Below, in pieces: positions 19,937 through 38,785 of a stretch of 64,000 nucleotides of DNA. Every line of letters starts with the position of its first letter. Within the stretch, counting starts at the first letter, position 1. The notes under the pieces were generated by a model. It was given only the letters and a program-made list of their open reading frames with translations. It was not told the origin of the DNA and ran no database searches. This DNA is from Promethearchaeota archaeon (GTDB lineage Archaea; Asgardarchaeota; Lokiarchaeia; Sigyniarchaeales; SOKP01), in contig JBHLLT010000016.1 in NCBI GenBank assembly GCA_048938855.1, positions 123-64,122 of the forward strand. Reading direction: 5' to 3'. Both the position numbers and the translations under genes were made by a program.

Positions 19937-20068
19937 GCATGATTATTCGGGCAAATAAAACTTCGCTAGGGTAAATTAGAGGCTATATTTAATAAAGCTT
20001 AACCTTAATAAGGATTTAGCGTTAATACAATTTAATTGAATAATAGAGATCTTAGAACGGACATATTT

Positions 20069-20350
20069 ATGGCAAAAGTGAAACTTCATTTATTAAATAT
20101 TTTTCAGCTTAGAACAGAGAAGAAATGTATAAATTACGAAGGGAAAACGGTAAGGGATATAATCTCTCAATTTCTCAATGAATATAGAGAAAAACTTGAT
20201 GATGCGCTCTTTGATAAAAATAAGACCAAGTTTAATTCTCAAATCCTTATTTTGTTAAATGGTAGGAATATTAAATATTTAAAAAACTATAAAACCATCC
20301 TAAAAGACGGAGATGAGCTTTACCTATCCTATGCTTTAGCTGGAGGGTGA
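20069..20350 (+). CDS. ubiquitin-like beta-grasp protein of the ThiS/MoaD family ending in Gly-Gly
   Basis: The ATG at 20069 (in frame with the TTG at 20036 in the ORF track) gives about 93 aa ending ...LLNGRNI......LKDGDELYLSYALAGG*, the typical ThiS/MoaD/SAMP C-terminus. Confidence 0.65.
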   Translation: MAKVKLHLLNIFQLRTEKKCINYEGKTVRDIISQFLNEYREKLDDALFDKNKTKFNSQILILLNGRNIKYLKNYKTILKDGDELYLSYALAGG

Positions 20351-20445: not shown

Positions 20446-21431
20446 ATGTTAGAAGATTTATCAATAAAAACATTTCAATATATATTAGGTGATTTTTTAC
20501 GACCAAGAAAATATGTGTTATAGGTCTTGATAATGCCGGTAAAACAAGTATCATAACAGCGATTACCAGAAGGTTTGGTTTTGAGGAAGAAATAGCTAGA
20601 TTAGTACCAACAAGAAGAATAGCGCGTGATACTTTTAAATTTTTGGGTATCGAGTTTACAAGAATGGATTTTGGGGGTCAAAAACAATATCGAGATGAAT
20701 ACCTAAAGCATCCTGAAAAATATCTAAGCGGAACAGATTTAATGTTTTATGTTATAGATGCACAGGATTTTAATCGATATATCGAATCTATAGATTATTT
20801 AGAAGAAGTATTACTTTTTTTGAAGGAAGAACAAGATTATGTTCCAATATGCATTCTTTTTCATAAATTCGACCCCCAACTCGTGGATGACGTACAAATT
20901 AATAAGAGAATCCTTACTTTAAAACAAGCATTAACAAGATATTCCAATGATTTTGATATTTTTTTCTTTGAAACAACGATATTTGATATTAAATCAGTCA
21001 TGGATGCCTTTTCAAGTGGATTGTCAATGTTGTTCGAAAAGGTTGAAATGGTTTCACAATTATTCGCTGAAATAGGTACTAATTATAATTCTATTTTAAT
21101 GGCATTATTTGATTCTCGAGGTTTGACTGTAGGAGAATGGTATAGACCACATCTTCAATTAACAGAGAAAATAAAGATTTATGAAAAATATATGGATCTA
21201 CAAAAACGAATAGTCGAAGAAAATAGACGTCTGCTCGAATTTTCTGATGTTTTTGAAAGTGGAGAGAGATTTTCAGGTATAATTGAGGTACTCAAATTTG
21301 GGAAGATGGATTTTTATTTATTATTCATTATTGAAGAGGATGAAGATTTACAGAAAACTGTTTCAATATTAGATAAAATTGAGGCCGCAAAACCTCAAAT
21401 GGAGAATCTTATTTTGCAAATAATTCAATAA
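20446..21431 (+). CDS. Arf/Rag(Gtr)-like small GTPase with C-terminal roadblock-like domain; reading frame interrupted by a -1 shift near 20493-20499
   Basis: The ATG at 20446 opens frame A (MLEDLSIKTFQYILGDFL..., TAG at 20521). The P-loop ICVIGLDNAGKTS, G3 MDFGGQ and G4 HKFD lie in the -1 frame, which continues as the track ORF 20643-21431. The -1 frame has no ATG/GTG/TTG between its TGA (20490) and the P-loop. The joined length of about 328 aa matches the 321 aa paralogue at 11552-12517. Confidence 0.6.
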
Positions 21432-22895: not shown

Positions 22896-25800
22896 ATGAT
22901 TAAAATGAATATTTCTAAACGTACTCAAATAAAAGGACTTAGTGTTATTCTACTTATTACGATAATCCCATTAATTATAAGTATATTACCAAGTTCATAT
23001 GTAGATAGAGATAATTCTGTCGTGACCGATAAAAATGAAGGTTTAAATAATCTACAATTAGGGTTACCACCAACAACTTATGATTGGTGGAACAATTCTT
23101 GGAACTTCAGAGTGCCCGTGTCCATTGAAGCAGTAGGGAGTCAACAAGACGCCCCAGTTGAGTTTTTCATAAATTTCACAAAGTACTTTAAAGATTTAGA
23201 TATAGAAAATCCTGAGTTAAACACTTCCACAATCCGAGTAATTGAATATCTCTCCAGTTCTAATTATTATGAAGTTGAGAGTCAATTTGATCCTTATTCA
23301 AGTTCTTATGACCATCAGGAAAATGCTATAGGAGATTTAATTTGGATATTAAATGGTACAACTCCAAATGGACAAACACGAGACTTTTTCATATATTTTA
23401 ATAATGGTACAGATTTTAGTATTCCAGAATCAAATTACGATACTATACGACTTTGGCATGAAGGTTTTGAAGAATATCAATCTGGAGATATTGGAAGACC
23501 AACTGATGGACAAGATATTCAACCAACTTTCTGGGAAATTAGTAATTCAACTTCTGCAAGAGGTAGTTCTTCACTTCATATTTGGGGAAATTGCTGGAAA
23601 TGGTCTGCTACAGGTTCTATGACCGTAAATTCAGATATGAGAGTCACAGCAAAAATGAGATTTGATGATCCAAGTATTCAAAGAGAAATTTCAGGGATTG
23701 GTTTTGCTAATAGCCCTACTAATATTCCTGCCACTGGAAATAGCTATCGCATTAGAGGATCTCAATCATGGGGAACTGCTGGAGGAAATAAATATGTAAA
23801 TCAATATTATACTGCAAACACCTTTTTCTGGTATACATTTATCCCTAGCACCGAATTTTCTCTCAGCTCATTCACATACATTTTTTATATAGCAGATGAT
23901 GATAGTTGGAATAGTCTTGATTTATACTGGGATGATATTTCAATCTGGAATAAACCAGTTCAAACCACTCCCAATAATTCACTTCAAACGACAATAGGAG
24001 ATATCCAACCAATTGCGTACACAATGAAGGTTATCTGTAAAGATGAGGATGGTAATCGAGTTCATAATGCACATATTTATTTAACCAATAACCTGTTCCC
24101 CTCCTATAATCAGGATCATTTAACTGATGAGAATGGAGAGTGGACTTTTGATAATATTGAAAAAGATGCATTCTATAATATTACAGCTAATTATACTCAA
24201 AACGGTCTTAGTAATCCAAAAATAGCTACTGTATTTTACTTTGAAGACTATCAAATCACGCAATTAAATAATCGAATAACTGCTTATCTTAACCTATCTA
24301 AATTCAATTTTGATATAAAAGATAAAGACAATGATCCTATTCAATACGGTTTTGTTCTACTTAAAAATGGTACAGAAACGGTCGGAAAAGCAGTTCTTAG
24401 TGATTCTGGTACAGGATCCATTATATGGATTAATAATACTGCTTATAATTATGAAGTCTACTATGATTATGATTCACTACCAGATATATCAACCTATAGA
24501 TATTCAAATCTACAAATTTACAGTGCACCTGCAACAAAAAATATTGATATATCAACTGAGATAACTAAAATAGTTTTTAATGTTACTGATTTTGTAGATA
24601 ACCTCCCATTTACAAATGCCAAACTAAGGTTCTATAATGAATCGGACTATGACATCGAAAGCCAAATTATCGCTAATGTTACTGTTGATATAACTGGATT
24701 AGCAACTTTTATTTCATTCAGCAACACTTATGGAACTTGGGGAAACTATACAGTAGATATATATTTCGGTGGAAATGAACGAGATTTTCACACAAATGGA
24801 GGTCCATTGGAACATGAATATAACTTTATTTTAATCGATGAGAACTATTCAGAAATCAAAATTCCCTTAAATAAAGATCTGTATAACTCTACAATTAATA
24901 TTATCAGTTATACATCTAATGTCTTTTGGGGAGATGATATTTCTATATATTTCAATTTTACTGCTCAAGATCCTCTTCTACCAAATCCAACATTAGTGGA
25001 TCCAAATGAACTGACTGTTCAAATATATGAAGAACAAATTACTCCTTATGGCGAAGAAGTAAATATCTTATCTTCGAGAATTTCTACTGGCTTTTTTAAT
25101 TATACATTTAATACGGTAGATTTTAATCTAAGAGGGGATTCTGTTTATTACTTCAGAATTACAGGAAATTATAAGAGTTACATATTTATTGCCTTAGATG
25201 TTAAATTTATATTCATCCAAGGACTACCAACTGGTATATCTTATTATGACTACTCATTAACAAAATTGACTGATAAAAAATTTTCGGTAATATTTGGAGA
25301 ATCTGTTAATATAACAGTTGATTATTTTAATTTTTATACTAATGTTTCCTTAGATGGAGCTTATATCACATATAATTGGGATTATGGTTCCGGAATACTT
25401 CTTGATGATCCATTACATGCAGATTACTATTATTTTGAATTTGATTCTTCAACATCACCTAATAGCGCTGAATATATTATTGATATCGAAGCAACTCTAA
25501 CAAATTATAGTACTATCGATGATTCAATTATCGTTGCTATCCAGCCTAGACCCACCACTATTAATGGAACAGCTACATTATTTCAGATGTCACCAAATAT
25601 ATTTGTTTTTGATCAAGTTAACTTTTTATTCGAATATAAAGACACGCTACAAAATCTAAGACTCGGAAGTTTGGATGTCATTAGATATTATTGGAATAGG
25701 TTAGATGAAAATGGAGATCCTCTTAGTGGTCCTGGAAACGAAGGAAGTGGATTTTTAGGTACTGCAGTAAACAATTTATATATTCTAGATTTCGATACAG

Positions 25801-26555
25801 AATCGAGAGAAGTTGGAGAATATTCTATATTTGTTACTATGCAAAAAAATAATTATGAGGTCAGAAATGCGATTATTTTATTGACTATAAGCAAGAGGCC
25901 AATAACAATGCATTTAGATGCTACAGGATTATCTGGAAGTAGAATCAGTGTTGTTCAGGGAACTCCAATTAATTTCAGCATTGTTCTTACTGATGAAACT
26001 TATGGAATCCAACTATTATCTGGCGCAAATATAACACTATGGCTTAATGGAATTGAGATTTCTGTTGACGAAGTTTCTGGTTCACCCGGGACATATGAAT
26101 TATTCTTTCCTACTGCCAATATTAATGCTTTCTTTTTACCTCAAACATTGATGGGAGAAATTACAGTGGAATTAGATAATTATGAGATAGATCCAAGGAC
26201 TATTACAATTGTAGTAAGAATGACAGAAATTTTTCCTGGATTTCCATTGTTTTACTTTTTACTGATAGTAGCAGCTGTAGTAGCTATAGCAGGTAGTTTA
26301 ACTGCATATCGTATGATTCAAAGAGCTAGAATTCCCACTTTTGTAAAGAAAGCAAGACAGATGAAGAGTTTTATTAAATCTAAAAAGACAATTTCAGATT
26401 CTTTATTATACCCCTCCAAGGAGGAATTCATTATACAGAAACTAGGAGATAAATGGGATCAACTTGGATTATCATTAAAAGATATTTATGGCAAAGAAGG
26501 AAAGAAAAAGAAAGGGTTACCAGAATTTAAAAAAGAATTAAAATCAGGTGAATAA
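22896..26555 (+). CDS. giant single-pass surface protein, module 1 (signal/anchor, DUF2341-like domain, CarboxypepD_reg-like beta-sandwich repeats, C-terminal TM helix, conserved cytoplasmic tail)
   Basis: 1219 aa. The N-terminal hydrophobic segment is LSVILLITIIPLIISIL. YDWWNNSWNFRVPVSI...IRVIE...FFIYFNNG resembles DUF2341. Repeats such as VICKDEDGNRVHNAHIYLTN...DENGEWTFDNIEKDAFYNITANYT are prealbumin/CarboxypepD_reg-like. There are many N-x-S/T sequons. The TM helix is FPLFYFLLIVAAVVAIAGSLTAY, followed by a basic tail of about 95 aa. Confidence 0.8.
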   Translation: MIKMNISKRTQIKGLSVILLITIIPLIISILPSSYVDRDNSVVTDKNEGLNNLQLGLPPTTYDWWNNSWNFRVPVSIEAVGSQQDAPVEFFINFTKYFKDLDIENPELNTSTIRVIEYLSSSNYYEVESQFDPYSSSYDHQENAIGDLIWILNGTTPNGQTRDFFIYFNNGTDFSIPESNYDTIRLWHEGFEEYQSGDIGRPTDGQDIQPTFWEISNSTSARGSSSLHIWGNCWKWSATGSMTVNSDMRVTAKMRFDDPSIQREISGIGFANSPTNIPATGNSYRIRGSQSWGTAGGNKYVNQYYTANTFFWYTFIPSTEFSLSSFTYIFYIADDDSWNSLDLYWDDISIWNKPVQTTPNNSLQTTIGDIQPIAYTMKVICKDEDGNRVHNAHIYLTNNLFPSYNQDHLTDENGEWTFDNIEKDAFYNITANYTQNGLSNPKIATVFYFEDYQITQLNNRITAYLNLSKFNFDIKDKDNDPIQYGFVLLKNGTETVGKAVLSDSGTGSIIWINNTAYNYEVYYDYDSLPDISTYRYSNLQIYSAPATKNIDISTEITKIVFNVTDFVDNLPFTNAKLRFYNESDYDIESQIIANVTVDITGLATFISFSNTYGTWGNYTVDIYFGGNERDFHTNGGPLEHEYNFILIDENYSEIKIPLNKDLYNSTINIISYTSNVFWGDDISIYFNFTAQDPLLPNPTLVDPNELTVQIYEEQITPYGEEVNILSSRISTGFFNYTFNTVDFNLRGDSVYYFRITGNYKSYIFIALDVKFIFIQGLPTGISYYDYSLTKLTDKKFSVIFGESVNITVDYFNFYTNVSLDGAYITYNWDYGSGILLDDPLHADYYYFEFDSSTSPNSAEYIIDIEATLTNYSTIDDSIIVAIQPRPTTINGTATLFQMSPNIFVFDQVNFLFEYKDTLQNLRLGSLDVIRYYWNRLDENGDPLSGPGNEGSGFLGTAVNNLYILDFDTESREVGEYSIFVTMQKNNYEVRNAIILLTISKRPITMHLDATGLSGSRISVVQGTPINFSIVLTDETYGIQLLSGANITLWLNGIEISVDEVSGSPGTYELFFPTANINAFFLPQTLMGEITVELDNYEIDPRTITIVVRMTEIFPGFPLFYFLLIVAAVVAIAGSLTAYRMIQRARIPTFVKKARQMKSFIKSKKTISDSLLYPSKEEFIIQKLGDKWDQLGLSLKDIYGKEGKKKKGLPEFKKELKSGE
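26546..26551 (+). promoter_or_regulatory. Shine-Dalgarno-like site for the module-1 partner gene, embedded in the last codons of the surface-protein gene
   Basis: AGGTGA lies 6 nt upstream of the ATG at 26558 and is complementary to the archaeal 16S 3' end (..UCACCUCC). The equivalent site occurs in all three modules. Confidence 0.55.
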
Positions 26556-26557
26556 TA

Positions 26558-27661
26558 ATGCCAATCGGATTAATCATTATGAGATGGAACGAGAGAGTAG
26601 GTACTGAAATAATGAAGAAGTATCCTGAAGAAATAGAAATTACTGATGGGACACTTATGCAAATATATAGTACTCATGAATACAGTGGAGAATCTGGATT
26701 GATATGTTTAATGATTGGATCGTTAAACATTGCTTCTTATTACACTGGCCCTAAAAATGAACATTATGTAATTCTTTTATTAAACATCGATGAAGATCCA
26801 GATTCTTATGAAGAAGGTTTAGTAGATGTTTCTCGAGTTATTCTACAAAATTTAGATAATAATGCGTATTTTGACATGATACCTTCTCTTTTTCAGAGAT
26901 TAGCTGTCTATCCTACACTTAGTGCTGAACAAATACTTGCATTCACTTATTTTGATGAAGTCAAAAGAATGATCATTGATCGTTTAAGAGTAGATGGCGC
27001 TGTATCTAAATCAGAAATTATAATCTGGCTAAAAGATCAGTATAAACAGGGATTTCTTAATATAGATGCGGATATCATAGAATTAATTAAACGCAATATA
27101 ATTAAACAAGTATCAGTAAAAGGAATACCTTCAGAATTATTATTTCTAATTAATGATATTGTGTGTATGCGAGTTCCTCCAGTAAAATTAGTAAAAAATC
27201 CATTAGAATGGGGTTTACCTTCTACACTTGCAGAAGGTTATAAAATTGAAGTGAAAAAATATTTTCAAGCTTATCGACCTTCAGAAACAGATAATTTAAG
27301 AGTATTAGATGTTCTTACTAATCCACAAGCTTATGAAACTTTATGTTTATTAAGAACTGCTATTGTTACAAGAAATGAGCTAGAAAAATTAAAGAAGAAG
27401 GGCGTAGATGACCTTGATAATGTCTTAAAAATGCTATGGGAATCTCAAATAGTACAAATCTTTCGTGACGAGAACGAAAATGAGTACTATGCTCTTCTTA
27501 CTGATTTTTATATAGATCTGATGTTCCCAAAATATCTAATGAACATTATAAAAATGAATTATGAGAATAAGTCAAAAGCAGAACCAGTTTTAATAGAATA
27601 TCTTACTATATTAGAAGATAATTACATTAATATGAAAAGTACCAAAAAATCTAAAACATAA
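26558..27661 (+). CDS. cytoplasmic partner protein, module 1 (uncharacterised family: longin/roadblock-like N-terminal domain + winged-helix-like repeats)
   Basis: 367 aa with no TM helix. It starts MPIGLIIMRWNERVGTEI 2 nt after the upstream stop codon. It aligns over its full length with 32214-33326 and 38785-39900. Domain assignments are inferred from the predicted secondary-structure pattern only. Confidence 0.75.
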   Translation: MPIGLIIMRWNERVGTEIMKKYPEEIEITDGTLMQIYSTHEYSGESGLICLMIGSLNIASYYTGPKNEHYVILLLNIDEDPDSYEEGLVDVSRVILQNLDNNAYFDMIPSLFQRLAVYPTLSAEQILAFTYFDEVKRMIIDRLRVDGAVSKSEIIIWLKDQYKQGFLNIDADIIELIKRNIIKQVSVKGIPSELLFLINDIVCMRVPPVKLVKNPLEWGLPSTLAEGYKIEVKKYFQAYRPSETDNLRVLDVLTNPQAYETLCLLRTAIVTRNELEKLKKKGVDDLDNVLKMLWESQIVQIFRDENENEYYALLTDFYIDLMFPKYLMNIIKMNYENKSKAEPVLIEYLTILEDNYINMKSTKKSKT

Positions 27662-27831: not shown

Positions 27832-30800
27832 ATGAAGATACAAAAAATAAATAGACGTCAATTAATTAGATCATCGCTATTATTAGCAATATTATTTCTT
27901 AACATTTATATCGGATTTTCAGTAAACCTTATTAATTCCAACTATGATAGTGATAATCTTATTAATGTTAAAAACACAGAAAATGATAAATTTTGCAACG
28001 AGTCTCTAAAATCTAGTGTTTTAGGTAATGATACTTGGTGGGATACTGATTTTGCTTATCGTCGATTAATTACTGTTACAAATCCATATGATATCAATTT
28101 TACAGACTTTGGCGTGAGTCTAATTCTTAATTATGCAGAGTTGGGTAGTACAATTCAATCTAATCTTGATGATATTAGAATCATAGAAAATAATCAACTA
28201 CGAAAATATACTGTTTCTAAAGATTATCCCAATATAGGTTTCGCAACTATTTGGTTTGACACTAATATAACGCAATCAACGACTGAAAGAGATACATATT
28301 TATACTTTGGAAATAGTTTAGCAGTAAATTCTGAAGCTAAAACTGTATCAGACAGTTTTGGTTGGATTAAAAATGGAGACTTCGAATTAGATAATAGTAC
28401 TGATCAATATATTAACCCTTATGGTTGGACTTTTTCGCATGATCAAGTAGATCAAATCAAAGATATTAGTGACCCAAGAGAAGCTTCAAATTATTCTCTA
28501 GATAGTTATAATAACTTCGAAAATAATCTTGTCAATATAAATGATAGAGAGATGGCGGAGAGAGTAGATTCAGGATATTATGCATATAAGTGGGGCGGTG
28601 AAGGCTCTTTTCTCCCTCAAGCAGCATGTAAAGACTATGTAGGAACATTTTATTCTTACCCTTTTAAAGTTCCAATAATAGAAGGAGGAAAAATTGGTTT
28701 ACATGTTTATCGCAATGTACGGACCTGGTTTTTCGAAGACCCAGATTCTTCTCTTCCTACAATTTCAAATGATGGCTATTTTTTAAGGCTTTGTAATGGT
28801 TCAGATTCGGAATATACAAATGAAGTTGATTTACATGAAAATATCGGTAGTGGTTATGAAAGCTGGATAGAAACATATGGAGGATTCGCTTATATTTCAC
28901 CAAATAGAAAAACATTAAGATATCATGATGAATTAAAGGAACATTTCCAATTAGACCCTGAAATATTTACTAGATCAAGTACAAGTTCTGACGGGGATTT
29001 GACTGGTTCTTTAGAAATTGATGTTTCTAATTATATGGGTAAGGAAATTTTCATAGAATTTGGTACTTGGGGCCCGGAAGATGGTGATATTCAAACAGTA
29101 AAGTCAGGATTCTTTCAAGTGGATAATATAAAGTTTAATTACACATTATCAGCACAAATTGAAGAACCCCAAGCTCAAGTATCATCAGTTGAGGTAGTTT
29201 TAAAAGATATTGATGGAAGGAGTGTTCCTACAGCAAATGTAATGATTGTTGACAATTCTTATGCAAAAGGATCATCTAATTATTATGTTGCGAACGGAAC
29301 AGGTATTAACGGGAGAGTTACTTTCAATAATATACCTATTGGTTATTATAATATTACTGCTAATTATACATTGGGATCTCAATCAATTGAAGTATTTAAT
29401 AGCATTGAGAAACGTATCGGTCCATATTATTTTAATGGAATAGATTATACTATTGATATTAACCTAAATCTCTGGACAATTGATTTTGAAATTGTAGATT
29501 GGGATGGTATTCCTTTGAAATATGGTTATATTGAGATTAATGAAAGTCTTGGAGGAGCTTTGTTAGATACACTGACACTAGACTCTTCAGGAAAAGCAAC
29601 CTTCCGATGGCTAAACAGTTCGAATTTCTATTATAGAGTTTATTATAATAATGATGATTATGGTATCAATTTTAGCCCTACTATTCTAAATGAGAGTTCT
29701 ATTTCTCGAAGTGATTATGTAAAAGACAACGTGAAATTTAGGCATCATACAATATATGTGAATCAATCTAGTATAGGGAGTTACTCAGTAAGCGAAAAGT
29801 TCTATACGGATGGTTCGCGAACTGTATTAGGAAATAAAAAGATAACCAAAGCAAATATTACTCTGAACAATATGGAAAATTATATGACAGATATCTCTGT
29901 TTATTACATTGATAAAGATGATTCAACTACAGGGAACCTTCTTTATTACAAAGAATATTCTGGTCAAGTTACAAGTGACTTTATTGAACTTGATATAGCA
30001 GAGATTAATAATATCAATCTATTGAATGATAATTACAAAATATATGGATTACTAGTTGAAGTTAATGGGTATAATACTTCACAATCTAATGGATTAATTA
30101 ATGTAAACTTTATTGAAACTTGTAATGTTAAAGTAAGAACCCCATTAGCAAGATTAAATATTCGTTTGACATATTTTAGTGATGTAGACAAAGAATATAA
30201 ACCATTGAGCGGAACAATTAAAGTGATTGATAATGCTACAGGATTCCATTTATTGAATTTATCAGCAATTTCAGATAGAGATGGATATGCTTATGCTCCA
30301 AAAAATTCTTATGAAACACCGTTTTGGTATTTAATTAACAGGGTGTATAATTTCTCAATTGATGTTGCTCACAATCCTAATGTAGATTTCAATATAACAT
30401 ATATCAATCCATCCCAATGGATTCCTGCTCCTGGTGAGAAAATTAAATGGTTTAACTATACACTTTATCAAAACTCATCAATCACTTTTAATGTAATCCC
30501 AGAAGTAGAAACAAATTTTACGCAATATGATACAGAGTTTAATTCATCTTTTGGAATGACTGAAGTGATATGGGGGGAAAACCTAGTTTTCTGGGCAGAA
30601 TTATTATCTACTGATGATGATTGGCAAACATCAGATTTTGTCCCACAGCCTCCTGGTAGTTGCATCTTAACAATAAAATTAGCAGGATCAGATGAAGTTT
30701 TGAAAACTCTAGAGATGAATTATAATGGAAATGGTAATTATACATTGACTTACAACTCTGGATTGATTTCAGCTGGGAATGATTGGGAATATTATAATAT

Positions 30801-32214
30801 TGAAATAAATGGATATCATCCAATTTATGATGATCCAACTCCGTTGGTTTATTTAGTAAAAGTATTAGCAAAACCTACTACGATTAGCGCTCATGACTAT
30901 AGTTCACTCAATCTAATACCTTCTAGAGAATATTCAGCATATTTCGATGAGTATATTAATATTACAGTTAGATATACAGAAACTGAATTTGGAACGGCTT
31001 TAACTAACGCTCTTTTAAGTTATGAATGGGTTGGTCTTAATCCAATTAGTATCTATTCAGATCCTATAAACCACGAATATTTTACATTTACAATTAATAC
31101 AGGCGATGCGCAGAGTACAGGTCTAAAAGTAATTAGCATTACTGCCTCTTTTGAAAATTATACTAAACAATCGGATTTCATTGTATATCTTAATATTCTC
31201 GAAAGAAAAACAACTCTAAATTCCAAATTAGATGACCTATCTTATATTAGCTCAAGTGTTTATGTTCAAGATCAAAGAAATTTCATTTTCATGTATCGAG
31301 ACGCCAACACTAATAATATAATTGGAGATTTGGCTATTCATAATTTTGTTTGGGAAGAATTATATGAAAACGGAACAAAAGTACCTGGTAGCTTTGGCTC
31401 AGGAAGCCTAATTCAAAATATAAATCATAGCTATACTTTAGATTTTAACACAGAATTAAAACCAGTAGGATACTATTTCTTGTATGTAACTCTTAAACAG
31501 GACAATTATAAACAAAAAAATGCCTTTATTTATTTGGAAATTATATTAAGAGAATTTACTGTAACTATTCAAGATCCCCAATTAGGTAGTAACAATCAAA
31601 TTATTATAACTCAAGGATCTGATATTGATTTTGAAATCCATTTATGGGATGATACTAGATCGATAGAGCTACAAAATGCTATTATTAAATTAAATTTTAG
31701 GGGAATAAATTATACTTTTAATGAAATTCTGACTGAATTTGGTATATATAACGCATCAATTCTAACTAGGAATATAGATACATTTTTTACGGCGCAAACA
31801 TTTGTAGGAAAGATCTACATTGAAGCAGCTAATTTCACTAGCCAAGAGTTTACAATCACAATCACAGTAAAAATGCAAGAAATATGGCCTGGAATGCCAA
31901 CTTTCTATTTCATTTTAATAACATCTGCAATTGCCGCTGTTGTAGGAAGTGTAGTTGGATATAGAGTTATAACGCGAGCAAGAATACCACAACATGTTAA
32001 AAAGATTAGAAAAATCAAAGGTTTAATAAAATCTAAAAAGATGATAGCAGAATCATTTACAGTGCCAACTAAAGAACAAATGATGGTAAAACTATTTGGA
32101 GATGAATGGAAAGAAATAGGATTGTCAATAGAAGAAGCATTAGGGATTACTGATATAAAAAAGAAATCTTCATTAAAAGATAATAAATCATTAGAGCGAG
32201 GTGAGATTGACTAA
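27832..32214 (+). CDS. giant single-pass surface protein, module 2
   Basis: 1460 aa. The signal/anchor is LLLAILFLNIYIGFSV. The DUF2341-like start is DTWWDTDFAYRRLITVTNP...IRIIENN...YLYFGNS. CarboxypepD_reg-like repeats include VVLKDIDGRSVPTANVMIVDN...GRVTFNNIPIGYYNITANYT. The membrane-proximal region, TM helix (FYFILITSAIAAVVGSVVGY) and tail are homologous to modules 1 and 3. Confidence 0.8.
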   Translation: MKIQKINRRQLIRSSLLLAILFLNIYIGFSVNLINSNYDSDNLINVKNTENDKFCNESLKSSVLGNDTWWDTDFAYRRLITVTNPYDINFTDFGVSLILNYAELGSTIQSNLDDIRIIENNQLRKYTVSKDYPNIGFATIWFDTNITQSTTERDTYLYFGNSLAVNSEAKTVSDSFGWIKNGDFELDNSTDQYINPYGWTFSHDQVDQIKDISDPREASNYSLDSYNNFENNLVNINDREMAERVDSGYYAYKWGGEGSFLPQAACKDYVGTFYSYPFKVPIIEGGKIGLHVYRNVRTWFFEDPDSSLPTISNDGYFLRLCNGSDSEYTNEVDLHENIGSGYESWIETYGGFAYISPNRKTLRYHDELKEHFQLDPEIFTRSSTSSDGDLTGSLEIDVSNYMGKEIFIEFGTWGPEDGDIQTVKSGFFQVDNIKFNYTLSAQIEEPQAQVSSVEVVLKDIDGRSVPTANVMIVDNSYAKGSSNYYVANGTGINGRVTFNNIPIGYYNITANYTLGSQSIEVFNSIEKRIGPYYFNGIDYTIDINLNLWTIDFEIVDWDGIPLKYGYIEINESLGGALLDTLTLDSSGKATFRWLNSSNFYYRVYYNNDDYGINFSPTILNESSISRSDYVKDNVKFRHHTIYVNQSSIGSYSVSEKFYTDGSRTVLGNKKITKANITLNNMENYMTDISVYYIDKDDSTTGNLLYYKEYSGQVTSDFIELDIAEINNINLLNDNYKIYGLLVEVNGYNTSQSNGLINVNFIETCNVKVRTPLARLNIRLTYFSDVDKEYKPLSGTIKVIDNATGFHLLNLSAISDRDGYAYAPKNSYETPFWYLINRVYNFSIDVAHNPNVDFNITYINPSQWIPAPGEKIKWFNYTLYQNSSITFNVIPEVETNFTQYDTEFNSSFGMTEVIWGENLVFWAELLSTDDDWQTSDFVPQPPGSCILTIKLAGSDEVLKTLEMNYNGNGNYTLTYNSGLISAGNDWEYYNIEINGYHPIYDDPTPLVYLVKVLAKPTTISAHDYSSLNLIPSREYSAYFDEYINITVRYTETEFGTALTNALLSYEWVGLNPISIYSDPINHEYFTFTINTGDAQSTGLKVISITASFENYTKQSDFIVYLNILERKTTLNSKLDDLSYISSSVYVQDQRNFIFMYRDANTNNIIGDLAIHNFVWEELYENGTKVPGSFGSGSLIQNINHSYTLDFNTELKPVGYYFLYVTLKQDNYKQKNAFIYLEIILREFTVTIQDPQLGSNNQIIITQGSDIDFEIHLWDDTRSIELQNAIIKLNFRGINYTFNEILTEFGIYNASILTRNIDTFFTAQTFVGKIYIEAANFTSQEFTITITVKMQEIWPGMPTFYFILITSAIAAVVGSVVGYRVITRARIPQHVKKIRKIKGLIKSKKMIAESFTVPTKEQMMVKLFGDEWKEIGLSIEEALGITDIKKKSSLKDNKSLERGEID
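32198..32205 (+). promoter_or_regulatory. Shine-Dalgarno-like site for the module-2 partner gene
   Basis: GAGGTGAG lies 8 nt upstream of the ATG at 32214. That ATG overlaps the upstream TAA by 1 nt (TAATG). Confidence 0.55.
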
Positions 32215-33326
32215 TGCCAATAGGATTAGTAATAATGAGATGGGATATAAAAGTGAGTACAGAAATCCTCGCTAAGTATCCAAGGGAACTGATTATTAGT
32301 GATGAGACTCTCATGCAAATTTATGCTGCTCATGAATATACTGGGGAGCCGGGTATGATTAGTTTATTAGTTGGGCCTTTAAACATTGCATCTTATTATA
32401 CAGGACGAGAAAAACCGCTCTATATCATACTATTACTAAACTTAGATGAAGACCCCGATACTTATGAAGGTGGTCTATCTGATATCTCACGAGTGATATT
32501 TCAGAATTATGAAGATAAAGCTTATTTGGATATGATTCCGTTTCTCTTTCAAAGATTATCCACTTATCCTAATTTAAATGATGAACAAAGCTTAGCTTTG
32601 ACTTATTTAGATAACGTAAATTGTTTGATAATAGAGAGATTAAGAGAAGAAGGGGTAATTACTAAGTCAGAATTAAAGATCTGGTTAAGAGATCGATATC
32701 GAGAAGGGTTTTTTGATGTAGATGCTATTTTAATGGAACTCATTAAAAAAGAAATCGTTAAAGAAACATCAGTAAAAGGAATGCCCTCCGAATTGATTTT
32801 TCTTATTAATGATCTTTTAATGATAAGAAGGCCCCCTATAAAATTACTAAAAAATCCTATAGAACGAGGACTTCCGGAGAGATTTGTAGAGGAATATAAT
32901 GTTGCTGTCAGAAAATTCTTTCAAAAGTACCGACCTTCAGAAGAAGATAATCTAAAAATCCTTGATCTGGTTATTGGAGACCCACAGGTCTATGAAATAT
33001 TGAGACTTCTAAGGATTTCAATAGTAACTAAGAATGTATTGGAAAAACTTCGGAAAAAAGGAGTGGACGATATAGATGGTGGTTTAAAGAAATTATGGGA
33101 AAGTCAGTTGATACAAGTATTTCAGGATAACAAGGGGAATGAGTATTATGCTTTAATTTCTGATTTTCATTTATCTTTAGTATATCCTAAATATATGCTT
33201 AATATGATCATTCAACAATATACTGTAAAATCAAAATCAAGTAGTGTTTTAATCGAGTATCTAAATGTTCTTGATAACAATTATCGATCTATCAAACTGA
33301 AAGCGGATGTAAAAGAAGAAGACTAG
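32214..33326 (+). CDS. cytoplasmic partner protein, module 2
   Basis: 370 aa starting MPIGLVIMRWDIKVSTEI. It is collinear with the module 1 and 3 partners. Confidence 0.75.
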   Translation: MPIGLVIMRWDIKVSTEILAKYPRELIISDETLMQIYAAHEYTGEPGMISLLVGPLNIASYYTGREKPLYIILLLNLDEDPDTYEGGLSDISRVIFQNYEDKAYLDMIPFLFQRLSTYPNLNDEQSLALTYLDNVNCLIIERLREEGVITKSELKIWLRDRYREGFFDVDAILMELIKKEIVKETSVKGMPSELIFLINDLLMIRRPPIKLLKNPIERGLPERFVEEYNVAVRKFFQKYRPSEEDNLKILDLVIGDPQVYEILRLLRISIVTKNVLEKLRKKGVDDIDGGLKKLWESQLIQVFQDNKGNEYYALISDFHLSLVYPKYMLNMIIQQYTVKSKSSSVLIEYLNVLDNNYRSIKLKADVKEED

Positions 33327-33367: not shown

Positions 33368-34408
33368 TTATAGATTGCTTAAATAACCTTTTAATTTAAT
33401 TGCTTTTTCATGAAATTCCTTATAAAGATTATCATCGCCTAATTCTAAGCACAGATCTGAAATTTTATCAAAATACTCTGCGGTCTGGGCAATATCTCCG
33501 TTTTCTAAACTAACTTTCGCTTGGTGAATCAACTGATCTCTTTCGAATAAAGGTTTTAATAATGGTGAAGCATCAGTGCTAACTTCTAAGATATCTGCAA
33601 TAATTTGAATCATTTTTTCTCTATTATTTGGATCAATTGCTATCATTGAATATGTTTTCAAGCCAAGGATTTCTTCAATGTTTTGTATACTTAAAGCATT
33701 ATCCAAATCTTGTTTGTTACCTATAATAGCAGTATGGGTATAAGGGGCATGTTCCTTTACTAATTCAATAAAAAATTTGCTTTTTTCGACGTTTTCCAAT
33801 GTAGAGTCTGTAATGATAAGAACAGCATCACTTCCTTTAATAAAATCATTCCAGAGATAACTAAATTGTTCTTGTCCAGCAAAATCCCATAAATGAAAAT
33901 ATAATTTTCCAATTTTAACAGTTGAGATCTTCCCTGTTATAGTGGGGATATGGACAGATGGAATTTCAGTTGCGCAAATTAATGTTGTGGTGGTTGTTTT
34001 TCCAACACCAGAAAATCCCACTAATGAAATCTTGGTCTTAAGATTTCTATGGATAGAATCTACTATTGGATCAAGTAATTCCATCAGAGAAGAATCTAAG
34101 TTATCTATAGCATCACCAAAAGTATCTAAAAATTCTTTTCGAAGATTTGCTAATTCACTTTTAGATCGAGAGAGATCATCATTAATGTCGGTTATAAACA
34201 TAAATATTAATTTAAAATCCTCTTCTAATACAAAAATTATCTTATATTTAATATAATCATAACTATTGAGCTCAATACCAGTACCCTTTTTAGACACTTC
34301 CATTATTTCTTGGTAAAGTTTATTAAAATCTTCTTCTGATATTGCTTTACCGAAATTTTTATTGTAAAGTACTTTTTCATCCCTTAAAATATAAACTTGT
34401 CTTAACAT
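33368..34408 (-). CDS. small Ras-superfamily GTPase with N-terminal longin-like domain and C-terminal helical extension
   Basis: 346 aa. G1 is GFSGVGKTT, G3 is WDFAGQE and G4 is GNKQD. About 125 aa N-terminal to the P-loop (MLRQVYILRDEKVLYNKNF...YKIIFVLEEDFKLIFMFITD...) has a longin/SRX-like beta-beta-alpha-beta-beta-beta pattern. Confidence 0.75.
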   Translation of the reverse strand: MLRQVYILRDEKVLYNKNFGKAISEEDFNKLYQEIMEVSKKGTGIELNSYDYIKYKIIFVLEEDFKLIFMFITDINDDLSRSKSELANLRKEFLDTFGDAIDNLDSSLMELLDPIVDSIHRNLKTKISLVGFSGVGKTTTTTLICATEIPSVHIPTITGKISTVKIGKLYFHLWDFAGQEQFSYLWNDFIKGSDAVLIITDSTLENVEKSKFFIELVKEHAPYTHTAIIGNKQDLDNALSIQNIEEILGLKTYSMIAIDPNNREKMIQIIADILEVSTDASPLLKPLFERDQLIHQAKVSLENGDIAQTAEYFDKISDLCLELGDDNLYKEFHEKAIKLKGYLSNL

Positions 34409-34933: not shown

Positions 34934-37900
34934 ATGAAAGGACTAAGAATTGATTCAAAGAAGGTAATTTCTCTTACATTTTTATTGATTCTCTCATTGA
35001 GTTCAGTTTTATTATTATTTCCATCAAATTTTTTGAATTCAACAGAATTCAATCAAAATCCAGAAGAAGATAAAAAAGATAATAATTTCCGCCCATTGTT
35101 AAATGGTCCAATAGGTGAAGATCCTTGGTGGAATGTATCATATCAATGGCGCCAATGTATCAATATTACAAATCCGGGAGATTATAATTTAACTAATAAT
35201 TTCATTAGTATTCAGTTTAATTATGCAACTTTACGTGATAATTATAATATGGATCCTAACCTATACGACGTTAGAATAGTAGAGAATAATGTGGTAAGAA
35301 AATATTATGTAAAGAAAGACTTTCCTAACCTCGATACCGCAACTATATGGTTCGAAAATAATGTTACAACAGGAGAATCTGAATATGATACTTATATGTA
35401 TTGGGGGAATGCGTCCATTAATAATCGTGGAAGTAAACATCTCAATTATGATCCATCTGGATCCTCTTGGTGGCAATTTGAAGAAGGTTCTGGAGGGTAT
35501 GATTCTATTGTTCATGATTCATTAGATAATGCTGACGGTCATCTTTATGGAAGTAGTAGTAGTTATTATCCAGATTATGATTCAGATAGTGCTGTTGGAG
35601 AATATTCAATAAGTTTTGATGGTTCGCATGATTTTATATATATTGAGGATTCATTACATTATACTAATCCAAATGAGATTTCAGCTGTAACTGTTAGCTG
35701 TTGGTTTAAAACATCATTTTCAAGTAGTGGAAATTGGGATAACTGGGCGTTTTTTGATTTTGATAGATCAGAATATTTCAATTTCTTTATCACTGGAAAT
35801 GGAAGAATAGGTTTTGCTAGTTCAGCTACAGGTTATAGCGGTCAAAATGACTTTTTTGGGAGCGTTTCAGGTTTGAATGATGGTGAGTGGCATTTTGCCT
35901 GTGTAGTTTATGATGGAGTTGACAAATACATATATGTTGATAATTATGCTCCAGAGATTTGGGCCAATGCTATGGGAGGAAATGCTTTTGGAACCGGTAC
36001 TGATAGATGGGGATTTATCGGCGATGGTTCTGAAGCTACAGCAGAAAATGGAAATAGAAACAATTTTTATTATGATGGAAATATTGATGAAATTAGATAT
36101 TTTGATTATGCTGTTAATCCTGATGAAATTCAATGGCTAGCAAATTATTATTCAATTGATACAAATTTATTATCTGTTACAGAGCGAGCTGCTGCAGTAA
36201 CTATCACAGTAAAAGATATTGATAATCGATTAGTTCCTGGAGCAGAAGTTTCTTTATGGAAAAACTCTACTGATATCTTAGTATTACGTGGTGTTCCATA
36301 TACTGAATATTCCTCATCAGATGGTACAGTGTCTTTCACAAAAGTGCCTTTTGGTTTTTACAATATTACTGTGAATTATACTCTCAATTCCGGTTTGTAT
36401 GAAGAAGTTGTTTATGATAGCAGAGTTCAACCTCCTGGTGAAGTAGAATTCAAGGGATTAATTGTCAATGTTAACGTTACTGCAGATCTTTGGACAATTG
36501 ATTTTGAAGTAAATGATTGGGATGGAGATCCATTTGACCACGGCTTTGTACAAGTGGGAAATGCTACAGATTATATATTAGAAACTTTAACTTTAGACTC
36601 TGGGGGAACTGCAACCTTTCGCTGGACTGATCAACCCAATTATAATTATACAGTATATTATGATAATGTAGATTATCTAGGAAATCCAACTCGTTTAAAT
36701 TCTAGTACCATTACATATACTGGGCCAGCAATTTATGTTGAACATGTAAGAACAAGTATGTCTAAATTAGATATAAGAGTTATTGATGACACAGAAACTG
36801 TACCTGTAGAAGGTATTACAGTTAGAGTTGAGAACAGCTCATCAGGTGTTCATATAATTGATCTTAAAACAGATGATAATGGTAACGCATACGGTTTAAC
36901 TAATAGTGATGTTGGCTTTTGGTATAAAAGAAATACTATATATAACTTATCCTTATGGGTTGTGACAGAACAACGTACATTCAGAGTAAATTCTTCAGAT
37001 CAAGCTTTTAATCCTTCTACAATTTTAGATTACTATGAATACAATTTAAATTCAAGTTCTTCCTTAGTATTTGAATTAGATTTAAACTACCAAAACAGGT
37101 TATCTCGATTTTATAATAATAGTCTCGTTGCTGATTATAGTGTTGTTTTTGGTCAAAATATGTCATTTTCGATTACGTTAGAAACTTCTGATACTGGTCT
37201 TCCCGGCCCATGGGTAGCTGATGATGGTGTTGGGACAACAATAAGTTGTATAATTAAAAGTACTGCTATTGGAAACCCTACTATATACACAAAGAATATG
37301 GATTATACTATAAATGGAACATTTACTAGTGAAATTAACTCGAGTCGTTTTTCTGCTGGTGACTATGGTAAATCCTATATTGTCACTTTATCAGGTGTTA
37401 AATCATACTATAATAGTCCTGAAGATATCTTATTTGTTATATCAATAGACTCAATTTCTACTGGTATGAGCTTCCATGATTATTCTTCAATGCCCGATGA
37501 ATTACCTATAAATGAAGTCTCTCAGTATTATGATGAATTAATCAATATAACAGTAAAATATTATGATAAAAATAATAATCAAACTTTAGTTGCGGATACA
37601 TTTACTTATACTTGGGATTATGGTTCTGGCACTGTAAATTCTGATCCTTTAAATCCAGGATATTATACAGTTGAGATAGATACATCAGCAGCTACTAATG
37701 TCGGCAAATATCTTATAAAATTCACAGCAGGACGAGAGAATTATACAAAAATTGATAATTATGGATTATTTATCAATATCTTATCAAGACCGACGACCAT
37801 TAATGGTGAAGATGGAATTTTATATATCTCCCAAGACATCTTCATATTTAAAGAATTGAACTTTACTTTTATTTATTTAGATGAGATGAAAGGTACGCCT

Positions 37901-38785
37901 ATTTCAAATTTAGATGAAATGAGTTATTTATTACAAAAGCTTGATGAAAATGGTGATCCTATACCTGGTACTGCCGAAACAGGTTCTCTAGTAGCAGGAG
38001 TAGATGAGTTTATTTTGGACTTTAATACAGAAACAAGGCTAGATGGAGAATATTCAGTAATTGTGACTTTAGACAAAATGAACTGGGATCACAGAATTGC
38101 TATTATTTCATTGACAATAATGAAAAGAGAAGCGGATGTTACATTACCTGAACCTCCATTTGTTGGTACCAAAATATCAATCGCTTCAGGAGCAGCTTTA
38201 AATTTTGCTATTACTCTTACTGATCCAAATAATGAAACAGTTCCAAATGCTCCGATAAGAGGAGCAAATGTATATTTAACTATACAAGGTAGAGATATTC
38301 CATTTACTTATAATGGCAGTGGTGTTTATATTATTCAACCAACAGTTATTGCTGATGCCTTTTTTATGCCTCAAACATTTACAGCTACTCTCACTATTGA
38401 GAAACAGTATTTCTCCACTTCGGTAACTAGTATTACAGTAGTAGTTAATATGCAAGAAATCTTTGGATTTCCTATGTTCTATTTCTTGATGATAGTAGGA
38501 GCGGTTGTAGCCGTCGTAGGAAGTTTAGTTGCTTATCGTACCATCCAGAGAGCTAGAATTCCAAAGTTCGTTAAAAAAGTGAGAGAAATGAAGAAAAATA
38601 TAAAAGGAAAGAAAGATATTTCAGAATCACTATTATATCCAACTAAAGATGAATATATTGTGAAAAAATTAGGAGAAAAATGGGAAGTAATTGGATTATC
38701 ATTAGATGAAATTATGGGTCTCAGAGGTAAAAAGTCTAAGAAATTACCCGGAATGAATCAAGAATTTAAAGGAGGTGTTGATTAA
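34934..38785 (+). CDS. giant single-pass surface protein, module 3 (DUF2341-like + LamG/concanavalin-like + CarboxypepD_reg-like repeats, TM, conserved tail)
   Basis: 1283 aa. The DUF2341-like start is DPWWNVSYQWRQCINITNP...VRIVENN...YMYWGNAS. The LamG_3-like segment is FDGSHDFIYIEDS...VSCWFK...WHFACVVYDGVDKYIYVDN...IDEIRYFDYAVNPDEIQWL. The TM helix is FYFLMIVGAVVAVVGSLVAY. Confidence 0.8.
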   Translation: MKGLRIDSKKVISLTFLLILSLSSVLLLFPSNFLNSTEFNQNPEEDKKDNNFRPLLNGPIGEDPWWNVSYQWRQCINITNPGDYNLTNNFISIQFNYATLRDNYNMDPNLYDVRIVENNVVRKYYVKKDFPNLDTATIWFENNVTTGESEYDTYMYWGNASINNRGSKHLNYDPSGSSWWQFEEGSGGYDSIVHDSLDNADGHLYGSSSSYYPDYDSDSAVGEYSISFDGSHDFIYIEDSLHYTNPNEISAVTVSCWFKTSFSSSGNWDNWAFFDFDRSEYFNFFITGNGRIGFASSATGYSGQNDFFGSVSGLNDGEWHFACVVYDGVDKYIYVDNYAPEIWANAMGGNAFGTGTDRWGFIGDGSEATAENGNRNNFYYDGNIDEIRYFDYAVNPDEIQWLANYYSIDTNLLSVTERAAAVTITVKDIDNRLVPGAEVSLWKNSTDILVLRGVPYTEYSSSDGTVSFTKVPFGFYNITVNYTLNSGLYEEVVYDSRVQPPGEVEFKGLIVNVNVTADLWTIDFEVNDWDGDPFDHGFVQVGNATDYILETLTLDSGGTATFRWTDQPNYNYTVYYDNVDYLGNPTRLNSSTITYTGPAIYVEHVRTSMSKLDIRVIDDTETVPVEGITVRVENSSSGVHIIDLKTDDNGNAYGLTNSDVGFWYKRNTIYNLSLWVVTEQRTFRVNSSDQAFNPSTILDYYEYNLNSSSSLVFELDLNYQNRLSRFYNNSLVADYSVVFGQNMSFSITLETSDTGLPGPWVADDGVGTTISCIIKSTAIGNPTIYTKNMDYTINGTFTSEINSSRFSAGDYGKSYIVTLSGVKSYYNSPEDILFVISIDSISTGMSFHDYSSMPDELPINEVSQYYDELINITVKYYDKNNNQTLVADTFTYTWDYGSGTVNSDPLNPGYYTVEIDTSAATNVGKYLIKFTAGRENYTKIDNYGLFINILSRPTTINGEDGILYISQDIFIFKELNFTFIYLDEMKGTPISNLDEMSYLLQKLDENGDPIPGTAETGSLVAGVDEFILDFNTETRLDGEYSVIVTLDKMNWDHRIAIISLTIMKREADVTLPEPPFVGTKISIASGAALNFAITLTDPNNETVPNAPIRGANVYLTIQGRDIPFTYNGSGVYIIQPTVIADAFFMPQTFTATLTIEKQYFSTSVTSITVVVNMQEIFGFPMFYFLMIVGAVVAVVGSLVAYRTIQRARIPKFVKKVREMKKNIKGKKDISESLLYPTKDEYIVKKLGEKWEVIGLSLDEIMGLRGKKSKKLPGMNQEFKGGVD
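38771..38777 (+). promoter_or_regulatory. Shine-Dalgarno-like site for the module-3 partner gene
   Basis: GGAGGTG lies 7 nt upstream of the ATG at 38785, which overlaps the upstream TAA (TAATG). Confidence 0.6.

Follow-up and report, generated by a model that had tools for sequence, protein, structure and literature searches.

The DNA analysed here is a 64,000 nt stretch from a Promethearchaeota archaeon (Lokiarchaeia; Sigyniarchaeales; SOKP01), corresponding to positions 123–64,122 of the forward strand of contig JBHLLT010000016.1 (assembly GCA_048938855.1); this whole stretch is called the window. Its G + C content is about 30%. The plus strand carries three tandem gene pairs, in each of which a gene for a large surface receptor is followed by a gene for a smaller protein, the partner (pair 1: 22896–26555 and 26558–27661; pair 2: 27832–32214 and 32214–33326; pair 3: 34934–38785 and 38785–39900). 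The partners are predicted to combine a longin domain with two winged helices, an architecture resembling that of NPRL2 and NPRL3, and each pair may form a two-subunit transmembrane device that serves a small GTPase.

The open reading frames (ORFs) of partners 1 to 3 (367, 370 and 371 aa) all start with MPIGL..MRW and can be aligned end to end with one 1-residue indel. BLASTP identities are 67% between partners 1 and 3, 64% between partners 2 and 3 and 59% between partners 1 and 2 (E ≤ 1e-166). A preliminary description of the locus had reported such an end-to-end alignment, with roughly two-thirds of the positions identical in copies 1 and 3, and the identical blocks it listed for these two copies were all found (THEYSGESG, SLNIASYYTGP, DPDSYE.GL, SVKG[IM]PSEL[LI]FLI, LRTAIVT[RK]N.LEKL[KR]KKGVDDLD and NEYYALL[TS]DFY). 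It had also called the partners more conserved than the receptors. Since the large ORFs match each other at 30–39% identity over partial stretches only, this holds in the window, and it holds outside it as well: in 1,275 pairwise comparisons of 51 complete receptor-partner pairs from other genomes, the partner was ahead in 99.5%.

The receptors follow a common plan with an N-terminal hydrophobic signal or anchor segment, a very large ectodomain, a single transmembrane (TM) helix about 85 residues from the C-terminus and a basic tail. The ectodomains are acidic, with an isoelectric point (pI) of 4.2–4.5 and 26–34 N-glycosylation sequons, and the tails have a pI of about 10. In receptor 1 (1,219 aa), the ectodomain (pI 4.2, 26 sequons) is followed by a TM helix at aa 1110–1141 and a tail of about 85 aa with a pI of 10.0; the segment encoding helix and tail (26223–26552, plus strand) includes the juxtamembrane sequence RARIPTFVKK, a proposed docking site for partner 1. 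Receptor 2 (1,460 aa, TM helix at aa 1356–1380) and receptor 3 (1,283 aa, TM helix at aa 1175–1204) have tails of the same type. Domain matches in the ectodomains range from weak to good. They are weak in receptor 1 (Ig-like, MG4, CarboxypepD_reg), and receptor 3 contains DUF2341-like, Ig-like and Laminin_G_3 domains, the last of these being a concanavalin A-like lectin domain (3.5e-11). Good conservation across the three copies extends over the last 170 or so residues, which make up a membrane-proximal segment, the TM helix and the tail. The variability of the receptors is thus not uniform, which refines the picture of a variable receptor. All three window receptors, as well as receptors at Odin-, Njord- and other Asgard-type loci, share a juxtamembrane motif, (R/K)IPxx(V/I)(K/R)K. 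At one locus of a distant Promethearchaeota-type genome (L089, 1092–5972), the ectodomain gives weak matches to FG-GAP (integrin-alpha-like) and Big_1, and the tail motif and the partner are conserved.

Receptor and partner genes are closely joined. Partner 1 starts 2 nt past the stop codon of receptor 1, and the ATG codons of partners 2 and 3 share 1 nt with the receptor stop codons. Shine-Dalgarno-like sequences lie inside the last codons of the receptors (GGTGA at 26547–26551, plus strand, for partner 1; GGTGA at 32200–32204; GGAGGTG at 38771–38777). Together with the overlap or the 2-nt gap, this argues that the pairs are translationally coupled. The embedded sequence also accounts for the ...GG.. 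end of related receptors, and a reading of the C-terminal Gly-Gly as a ubiquitin-like motif was rejected on this ground.

The same arrangement was found beyond the window. A scan of GTDB with a close-homologue query (one genome per species, mainly Loki-type genomes sampled) yielded 243 confirmed matches, of which 77 loci were kept. In all 76 loci with upstream sequence, an ORF whose end falls between −1 and +3 nt relative to the start of the partner encodes the same TM helix and tail. This ORF is normally 1,200–2,300 aa long where the contigs allow, and shorter in L037 (151 aa) and L033 (638 aa). True receptor-partner fusions occur in P0121 (L083), P0125 (L082), P0123 and P0124. They were not regarded as gene-calling artefacts of an alternative genetic code, because no internal stops are present under table 11 and the start methionine of the partner has been lost.

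Among the 51 pairs, mean pairwise identity was 25% for the ectodomain, 58% for the TM helix plus tail and 73.5% for the partner. Tail identity climbs with partner identity, whereas ectodomain identity does not. The charges are complementary, with a pI of about 10 for the receptor tail and of about 5 for the partner, whose longin domain has a net charge of about −8.5. From the coupling, the fusions, this co-conservation and the charge complementarity we infer that tail and partner are likely to be in physical contact.

Estimates of nonsynonymous (dN) and synonymous (dS) divergence gave the same ranking. In 20 comparisons with unsaturated partner dS, the median dN/dS (Nei-Gojobori) was 0.053 for the partner, 0.127 for the TM helix plus tail and 0.30 for the ectodomain, and ectodomain dN was a median 13 times partner dN; these comparisons are non-independent, the method is simple and very divergent ectodomains align poorly. 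Identities and dN/dS ratios thus bear out the expectation that the intracellular component is conserved and the extracellular component it is paired with diversifies. In 7 of the 20 comparisons, ectodomain dS exceeded partner dS more than threefold. The partners of L005 and L009, for example, are 99% identical (dS 0.13), and the ectodomains differ with a dN of 0.60 and a dS of 1.7; in this pair, in L041/L045 and in others, partner dS values of 0.13–0.36 stand beside ectodomain dS values of 1.7–2.4. Near-identical partners next to such ectodomains suggest that recombination, with its breakpoint close to the TM segment, swaps ectodomain-coding DNA and leaves the cytoplasmic module in place.

The partner family is large and uncharacterised. 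Among the candidates scored, 779 clusters at 90% identity were obtained, all annotated as 'hypothetical protein' and all from genomes with Asgard labels, and an exhaustive HMMER search of 1.8 billion representatives returned 377 clusters at 50% identity. Scans of the partners against Pfam, NCBIfam and PADLOC assigned no family, so that these searches placed them in no curated class; only automatic labels were found on some distant members. PADLOC defence-component models gave no match at E ≤ 0.01 for partners, receptors or the GTPase described below.

Almost all of the 77 loci are labelled Promethearchaeota or carry another Asgard name. Two contigs are filed under bacterial names of metagenome-assembled genomes (Nanopelagicaceae, Hyphomicrobiales), namely DATKTW010000037.1 (L008) and CAZOBD010000420.1 (L068); L008 shows the full Asgard synteny, and mis-binning is therefore likely. 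Distant members (24–39% identity) are located on contigs labelled Odinarchaeia, Njordarchaeota, Jordarchaeaceae and Promethearchaeia. Most of them adjoin single-pass proteins of 1,095–1,626 aa, in which the ectodomains differ and the juxtamembrane motif is kept. A receptor is missing beside the distant members in L078 and L088, and L079 has a GTPase in its place. Phyletic mapping therefore recovered the pairing in Loki-, Odin- and Njord-type genomes, and it holds across Asgard lineages. In L006, L020, L041 and L065 (at about 2.3–3.5 kb in each), an intact extra partner without a receptor of its own directly follows a methyltransferase gene, giving the order partner-receptor-partner. Such extra copies may hint at heterodimers of two partner paralogues.

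An AlphaFold2 run on 37 close homologues was poor (predicted local distance difference test, pLDDT, 60) and the resulting model was not used. The model from 49 diverse sequences reached a pLDDT of 94.4 and a predicted template modelling score (pTM) of 0.88; all conservation counts given below out of 49 refer to these members. For partner 1, the predicted layout is a longin domain at residues 1–120, a first winged helix at about 134–206, an R205-x-P-P linker, a second winged helix at about 243–322 and a C-terminal helical pair. DSSP assigned to residues 1–120 the order strand-strand-helix-strand-strand-strand-helix-helix, which is that of the longin superfamily. Foldseek related this domain to the longins of Sec22b, VAMP7, Ykt6 and sigma-adaptin with probabilities of 0.97–1.00 and template modelling scores (TM-scores), normalised to the target, of 0.38–0.57; the Pfam Longin model had no match in the window partners. 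The preliminary description had proposed a longin- or roadblock-type fold for the first 115 or so residues, followed by two or three winged-helix-like units. Model and Foldseek matches agree with the former, and for the latter the model has two winged helices plus the helical pair. No enzyme fold turned up.

Against the PDB, Foldseek gave five matches at E ≤ 1e-3, all of them yeast Npr2 or human NPRL2 chains; chain identity was checked for 8adl_S and the NPRL2 content of the remaining entries was also checked. The next full-length matches, to chain C of GATOR1 entries, are probably NPRL3. They are followed by longin-only matches to DENND10, Sec22b, VAMP7, Ykt6, sigma-adaptins and Fuzzy. Against viral structures, nothing was found at E ≤ 1e-3. 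NPRL2 and NPRL3 are built from a longin domain plus two to three domains of the winged helix-turn-helix (wHTH) type in tandem (PMC3747258, PMC3521125), and the modelled partner has an architecture of this type. NPRL2 and NPRL3 (Npr2 and Npr3 in yeast) belong to GATOR1/SEACIT, the GTPase-activating protein (GAP) complex for Rag GTPases; like the partners, they work at a membrane surface. The partners differ in having two winged helices and a helical pair where NPRL2 and NPRL3 have TINI/INT inserts and a C-terminal domain (CTD), and in their link, through translational coupling or fusion, to a single-pass surface receptor, which NPRL2 and NPRL3 are not known to have.

Conservation is concentrated in the longin domain and the linker. 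The two most conserved longin features are W10-D11-x3-G15 (W10 in 45/49, D11 in 39/49 and G15 in 45/49) and S60-Y-Y-T-G64, which by inference from the model would lie in the loops between strands 1 and 2 and between strands 4 and 5, respectively. The linker R205-x-P207-P is almost invariant. In partner 2, the nearly invariant Gly15 is replaced by Ser, and this is also the paralogue type that is always trailed by an Arf-like GTPase. GAP-type longins (the class of C9orf72, SMCR8, FLCN and NPRL2) bear a GP motif where strand 2 begins, and C9orf72 has a WD motif in addition; the first of the two family features falls in this region. In C9orf72, W33-D34...G38-P39 forms part of the catalytic pocket of longin GAP complexes, and the motif is present in some Asgard longins (PMC12290439). 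The family motif at the turn between strands 1 and 2 has the same spacing, and at this motif level the residue after G15 is Pro in 6 of 49 members. Unlike C9orf72-SMCR8 and FLCN-FNIP, which contain uDENN-type longins, the family carries winged helices in place of a DENN module and has no Pfam Folliculin match. Longin or roadblock platforms for a small Arf- or Ras-like GTPase at a membrane are also known from the longin-like SRX domain of SR-alpha with SR-beta and from the roadblock protein MglB with MglA (PMC3747258). The recurrent neighbour of the family is likewise an Arf-like GTPase. In those systems it is the GTPase, and not the longin protein, that is anchored in the membrane; NG and SRP domains are absent from the family, which has no sequence relation to either system.

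This neighbour is a minus-strand gene (33368–34408) in the interval that separates pair 2 from pair 3, convergent with partner 2 and 41 nt away from it. Pfam Arf matches aa 119–253 (8e-19), and the protein has a C-terminal helical extension and an N-terminal extension of about 118 aa, whose sequence suggests a longin- or roadblock-like domain. Roadblock-GTPase fusions have been described in Asgard archaea (Tran et al., PMC10933270). The GTPase gene directly follows the partner-2-type gene in 26 of the 26 related loci that have it. Homologues were found in three further contexts, making four in all. In L079 (Jordarchaeaceae-type), the homologue comes directly after a 34%-identical family member, on the same strand and separated from it by 14 nt. 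In L080, where the protein cluster of the GTPase includes Njordarchaeota-labelled records, it diverges from a 29%-identical member, and in L083 it makes up the N-terminal half of a double GTPase whose gene diverges from a receptor-partner fusion. Roadblock-Rab-like GTPases flank both fusion genes examined. The surroundings of these fusions (L083, 3733–15565; L082, 4241–6101), which include the roadblock-Rab-like GTPases, the double GTPase of 651 aa and a conserved protein of 286–289 aa without a Pfam match on record, look like a small GTPase island.

A second GTPase gene of the window (20500–21431, plus strand) lies three genes upstream of receptor 1 and encodes a Gtr1/RagA-like protein (Pfam Gtr1_RagA, 2e-16) with a roadblock-type C-terminal half. 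Its P-loop, VIGLDNAGKTS, is in frame upstream of the first ATG, GTG or TTG codon, and orthologues start with an ATG just before the P-loop; the mechanically called start at 20643 is therefore too late. The gene is syntenic in 14 of the 77 loci within the flank available, and by this synteny it is a possible, if weak, candidate client.

Taken together, we propose that each pair is a two-subunit transmembrane device in which a tail-bound longin/winged-helix adaptor acts as platform or regulator for a small GTPase, a reading to which we give a probability of about one half. Its basis is the pairing with its fusions, the predicted fold, the pattern of selection and the GTPase genes nearby. A heavily glycosylated single-pass surface protein, whose ectodomain would be free to diversify and recombine, would supply the input. 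Its conserved juxtamembrane motif and basic tail would hold the acidic cytoplasmic subunit in stoichiometric amounts, translational coupling ensuring that both subunits are made together. The longin domain would most likely serve a small GTPase as platform or regulator, be it as GAP, guanine nucleotide exchange factor (GEF) or scaffold, and the longin-fused Arf-like GTPase whose gene adjoins pair 2 is the best candidate for a client. In this way, what happens at the surface could feed into intracellular processes under GTPase control, for example receptor sorting or the remodelling of membrane or cytoskeleton. With an ectodomain that varies, a short basic tail that is conserved and a conserved cytoplasmic protein dedicated to it, and with the link to small GTPases proposed here, the pairs recall eukaryotic single-pass adhesion or signalling receptors with cytoplasmic adaptors, such as integrin and talin; this is a functional analogy of architecture and selection pattern, without homology.

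Several observations weigh against this proposal. Full-length Foldseek TM-scores are low (about 0.2), because the match is per domain and domain orientations differ; what the partners have in common with Npr2 and NPRL2 is thus the order and the folds of the domains and not their rigid-body arrangement. Pfam NPR2 (PF06218), NPR3 (PF03666) and Folliculin gave no match at E ≤ 0.1 for the window copies or at E ≤ 1 for the 49 members. The family profile aligned by hhalign to human NPRL2 and to an 18-sequence vertebrate NPRL2 profile with a probability below 1%; the NPRL2 homologues listed (at least 120) were all from vertebrates, and the profile is shallow (effective number of sequences 1.4), which makes this a weak test, and a deeper profile could still reveal a link. 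The family is therefore NPRL2/NPRL3-like in predicted architecture, its membership of the NPRL2/NPRL3 family being unproven. In the equivalent of the NPRL2 loop with the R78 finger (aa 63–69, after S-Y-Y-T-G, placed by reading the NPRL2 sequence and without structural superposition), no Arg is conserved among the 49 members, and GAP catalysis by the partner alone is therefore not supported. On the side of the GTPases, the Arf-like gene of the window is convergent and not co-transcribed with the partner, many family members have no adjacent GTPase (e.g. L081, L087 and L089), and much of the synteny evidence stems from Loki-type genomes that are fairly close relatives. Since small GTPases are abundant in Asgard genomes, some adjacency is expected by chance. 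For these reasons the link between partner and GTPase is suggestive, but not conclusive.

The alternative that survives best takes the partner for a structural or biogenesis subunit without a GTPase role, either a cytoplasmic anchor that ties abundant surface glycoproteins to the cytoskeleton or to one another, in the manner of integrin and talin, or a dedicated chaperone or sorting factor by which the giant receptor is inserted and positioned. We consider it doubtful, although stoichiometric coupling and fusions would suit it, as would the many family members without an adjacent GTPase. The weak FG-GAP (integrin-alpha-like) repeats of one distant receptor point in the same direction. The longins of sigma-adaptin and VAMP7, both among the Foldseek matches, bind peptide motifs in cargo tails, and Asgard cells possess complex surface structures and an actin cytoskeleton (PMC9834061). 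What such a subunit leaves unexplained is the recurrence of one GTPase subfamily in four contexts, once on the same strand at 14 nt, and the position of the most conserved residues in loops which contact the GTPase in GAP-type longins (PMC12290439). In addition, the conserved neighbourhood contains no cytoskeletal gene.

The main rival of the GTPase-platform reading is a membrane-controlled transcription factor, in which wHTH domains and a longin- or GAF-like sensor would be held at the membrane by the receptor tail, or act while tethered, and be released or activated by a ligand. Winged helix 2 does resemble ArsR/SmtB-type regulators: residues 245–317 match PH1932 (E = 2e-4) and HlyU (E = 7e-3) by profile, and this winged helix was the only part for which a PDB sequence search with the diverse profile found anything, an ArsR-type winged HTH (a close-homologue profile found nothing). 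Among the 49 members, weak Pfam matches were obtained to HTH_20 in 7, to HTH_5 in 5 and to TrmB or TFIIE_alpha in some; a number of distant members are automatically labelled 'ArsR family regulator' or 'winged helix-turn-helix domain-containing protein', and CodY (GAF plus wHTH) and the Pyrococcus regulator Phr are among the weaker Foldseek matches. ToxR and CadC are transcription factors that act while tethered to the membrane, and the natural fusions are therefore compatible with this rival. However, the partner is acidic (family mean pI 5.4, above 7 in only 2 of 49 members), with mean net charges of −1.1 and −0.6 for the two putative recognition helices. In close homologues the recognition helix of winged helix 2 begins with D-D-L-D, D285 and D287 being invariant. 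As an argument from composition, this speaks against DNA binding. The family differs from ArsR/SmtB- and TrmB-type regulators (PH1932, Phr) in its acidity, its non-basic recognition helices, its added longin domain, its second winged helix and its obligate receptor link. The best full-length structural matches are to NPRL2 and NPRL3, whose tandem winged helices serve protein-protein contacts, conservation peaks in the longin loops and the R-x-P-P linker instead of the HTH, and the recurrent GTPase neighbours would be left without explanation. We therefore regard a transcription factor as unlikely.

That the partners are true NPRL2/NPRL3 orthologues, forming a GATOR1-like GAP for a RagA-like GTPase in nutrient sensing with the receptor as a mere membrane anchor, is very unlikely in spite of the architecture, the top Foldseek matches, the syntenic RagA-like gene, the partner-receptor-partner loci hinting at paralogue heterodimers and the NPRL2-like longins reported in Asgard genomes (bioRxiv 10.1101/2020.10.19.343400), since sequence similarity to NPR2 and NPR3 and a conserved arginine finger are lacking, no DEPDC5-like protein was seen among the window ORFs scanned, the recurrent neighbour is Arf-like and not Rag-like, and an opposite-strand ribosomal protein gene and a methyltransferase gene lie between the RagA-like gene and the array, so that its link may be plain synteny.

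Within the GTPase-platform reading, one may tentatively go further and picture an outside-in signalling machine, in which a hypervariable receptor is wired, through coupled or fused genes, to a GATOR1/NPRL-like longin module that switches longin-Arf-like (or Rag-like) GTPases. If this were true, the pairs would represent an Asgard-wide forerunner of eukaryotic longin GAP/GEF complexes and of membrane signalling from receptor to small GTPase, and they would be the first pairs of regulator and GTPase to be assigned from genomic data in Asgard archaea. Small GTPases and longin or roadblock proteins are numerous in Asgard genomes. To our knowledge, it is largely unknown which regulator matches which GTPase in these archaea and which signals feed in. 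The matching is hard because GTPase genes in general do not share operons with genes for longin or roadblock proteins (Tran et al., PMC10933270). Receptor tail, longin/winged-helix subunit and longin-Arf-like GTPase offer a testable triad conserved in several Asgard classes, which, if the link holds, bears on the pre-eukaryotic origin of membrane GTPase regulation and of transmembrane signalling. Their recombining and fast-evolving ectodomains mark the receptors as major players on the Asgard surface, for example in contact with partner cells or viruses.

Earlier work had already reported longin families of the NPRL2-like kind from Asgard genomes, and PMC9834061 lists them as a category. What appears to be new is a family of the longin GTPase-platform kind that combines an NPRL2/NPRL3 architecture with receptor pairing and fusion. 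Among the papers searched, none was found on this longin/winged-helix family, its receptor pairing or fusion, the juxtamembrane motif or the GTPase neighbour, which is no proof that none exists. The NPRL2/NPRL3-like architecture, the conserved receptor tail, the natural fusions and the recurrent small-GTPase neighbour were absent from the preliminary description.

The array is embedded in a conserved gene order, namely a ThiS-like gene, the RagA-like GTPase gene, the gene for ribosomal protein S25e, a methyltransferase gene, one to three receptor-partner pairs and a RuBisCO-like gene. The ThiS/MoaD-type ubiquitin-like protein (104 aa, with a Gly-Gly end; 20036–20350, plus strand) is encoded directly upstream of the RagA-like gene and is syntenic in a few related loci. 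Partner 3 is the most widespread orthologue type and always adjoins the RuBisCO large-subunit-like gene (40005–41342, plus strand), which invariably follows the last receptor-partner pair and is probably of the archaeal form III type. About 10 kb from it, an AMP/thymidine-phosphorylase-like gene is apparently split into two adjacent ORFs on the minus strand (52065–52610 and 51042–52061). The minus strand also encodes three paralogues in which a HEAT repeat at the N-terminus is combined with leucine-rich repeats at the C-terminus (41369–42328, 47776–49278 and 49521–51011); the first of them accompanies the receptor array in conserved synteny in 57 of the 77 loci.

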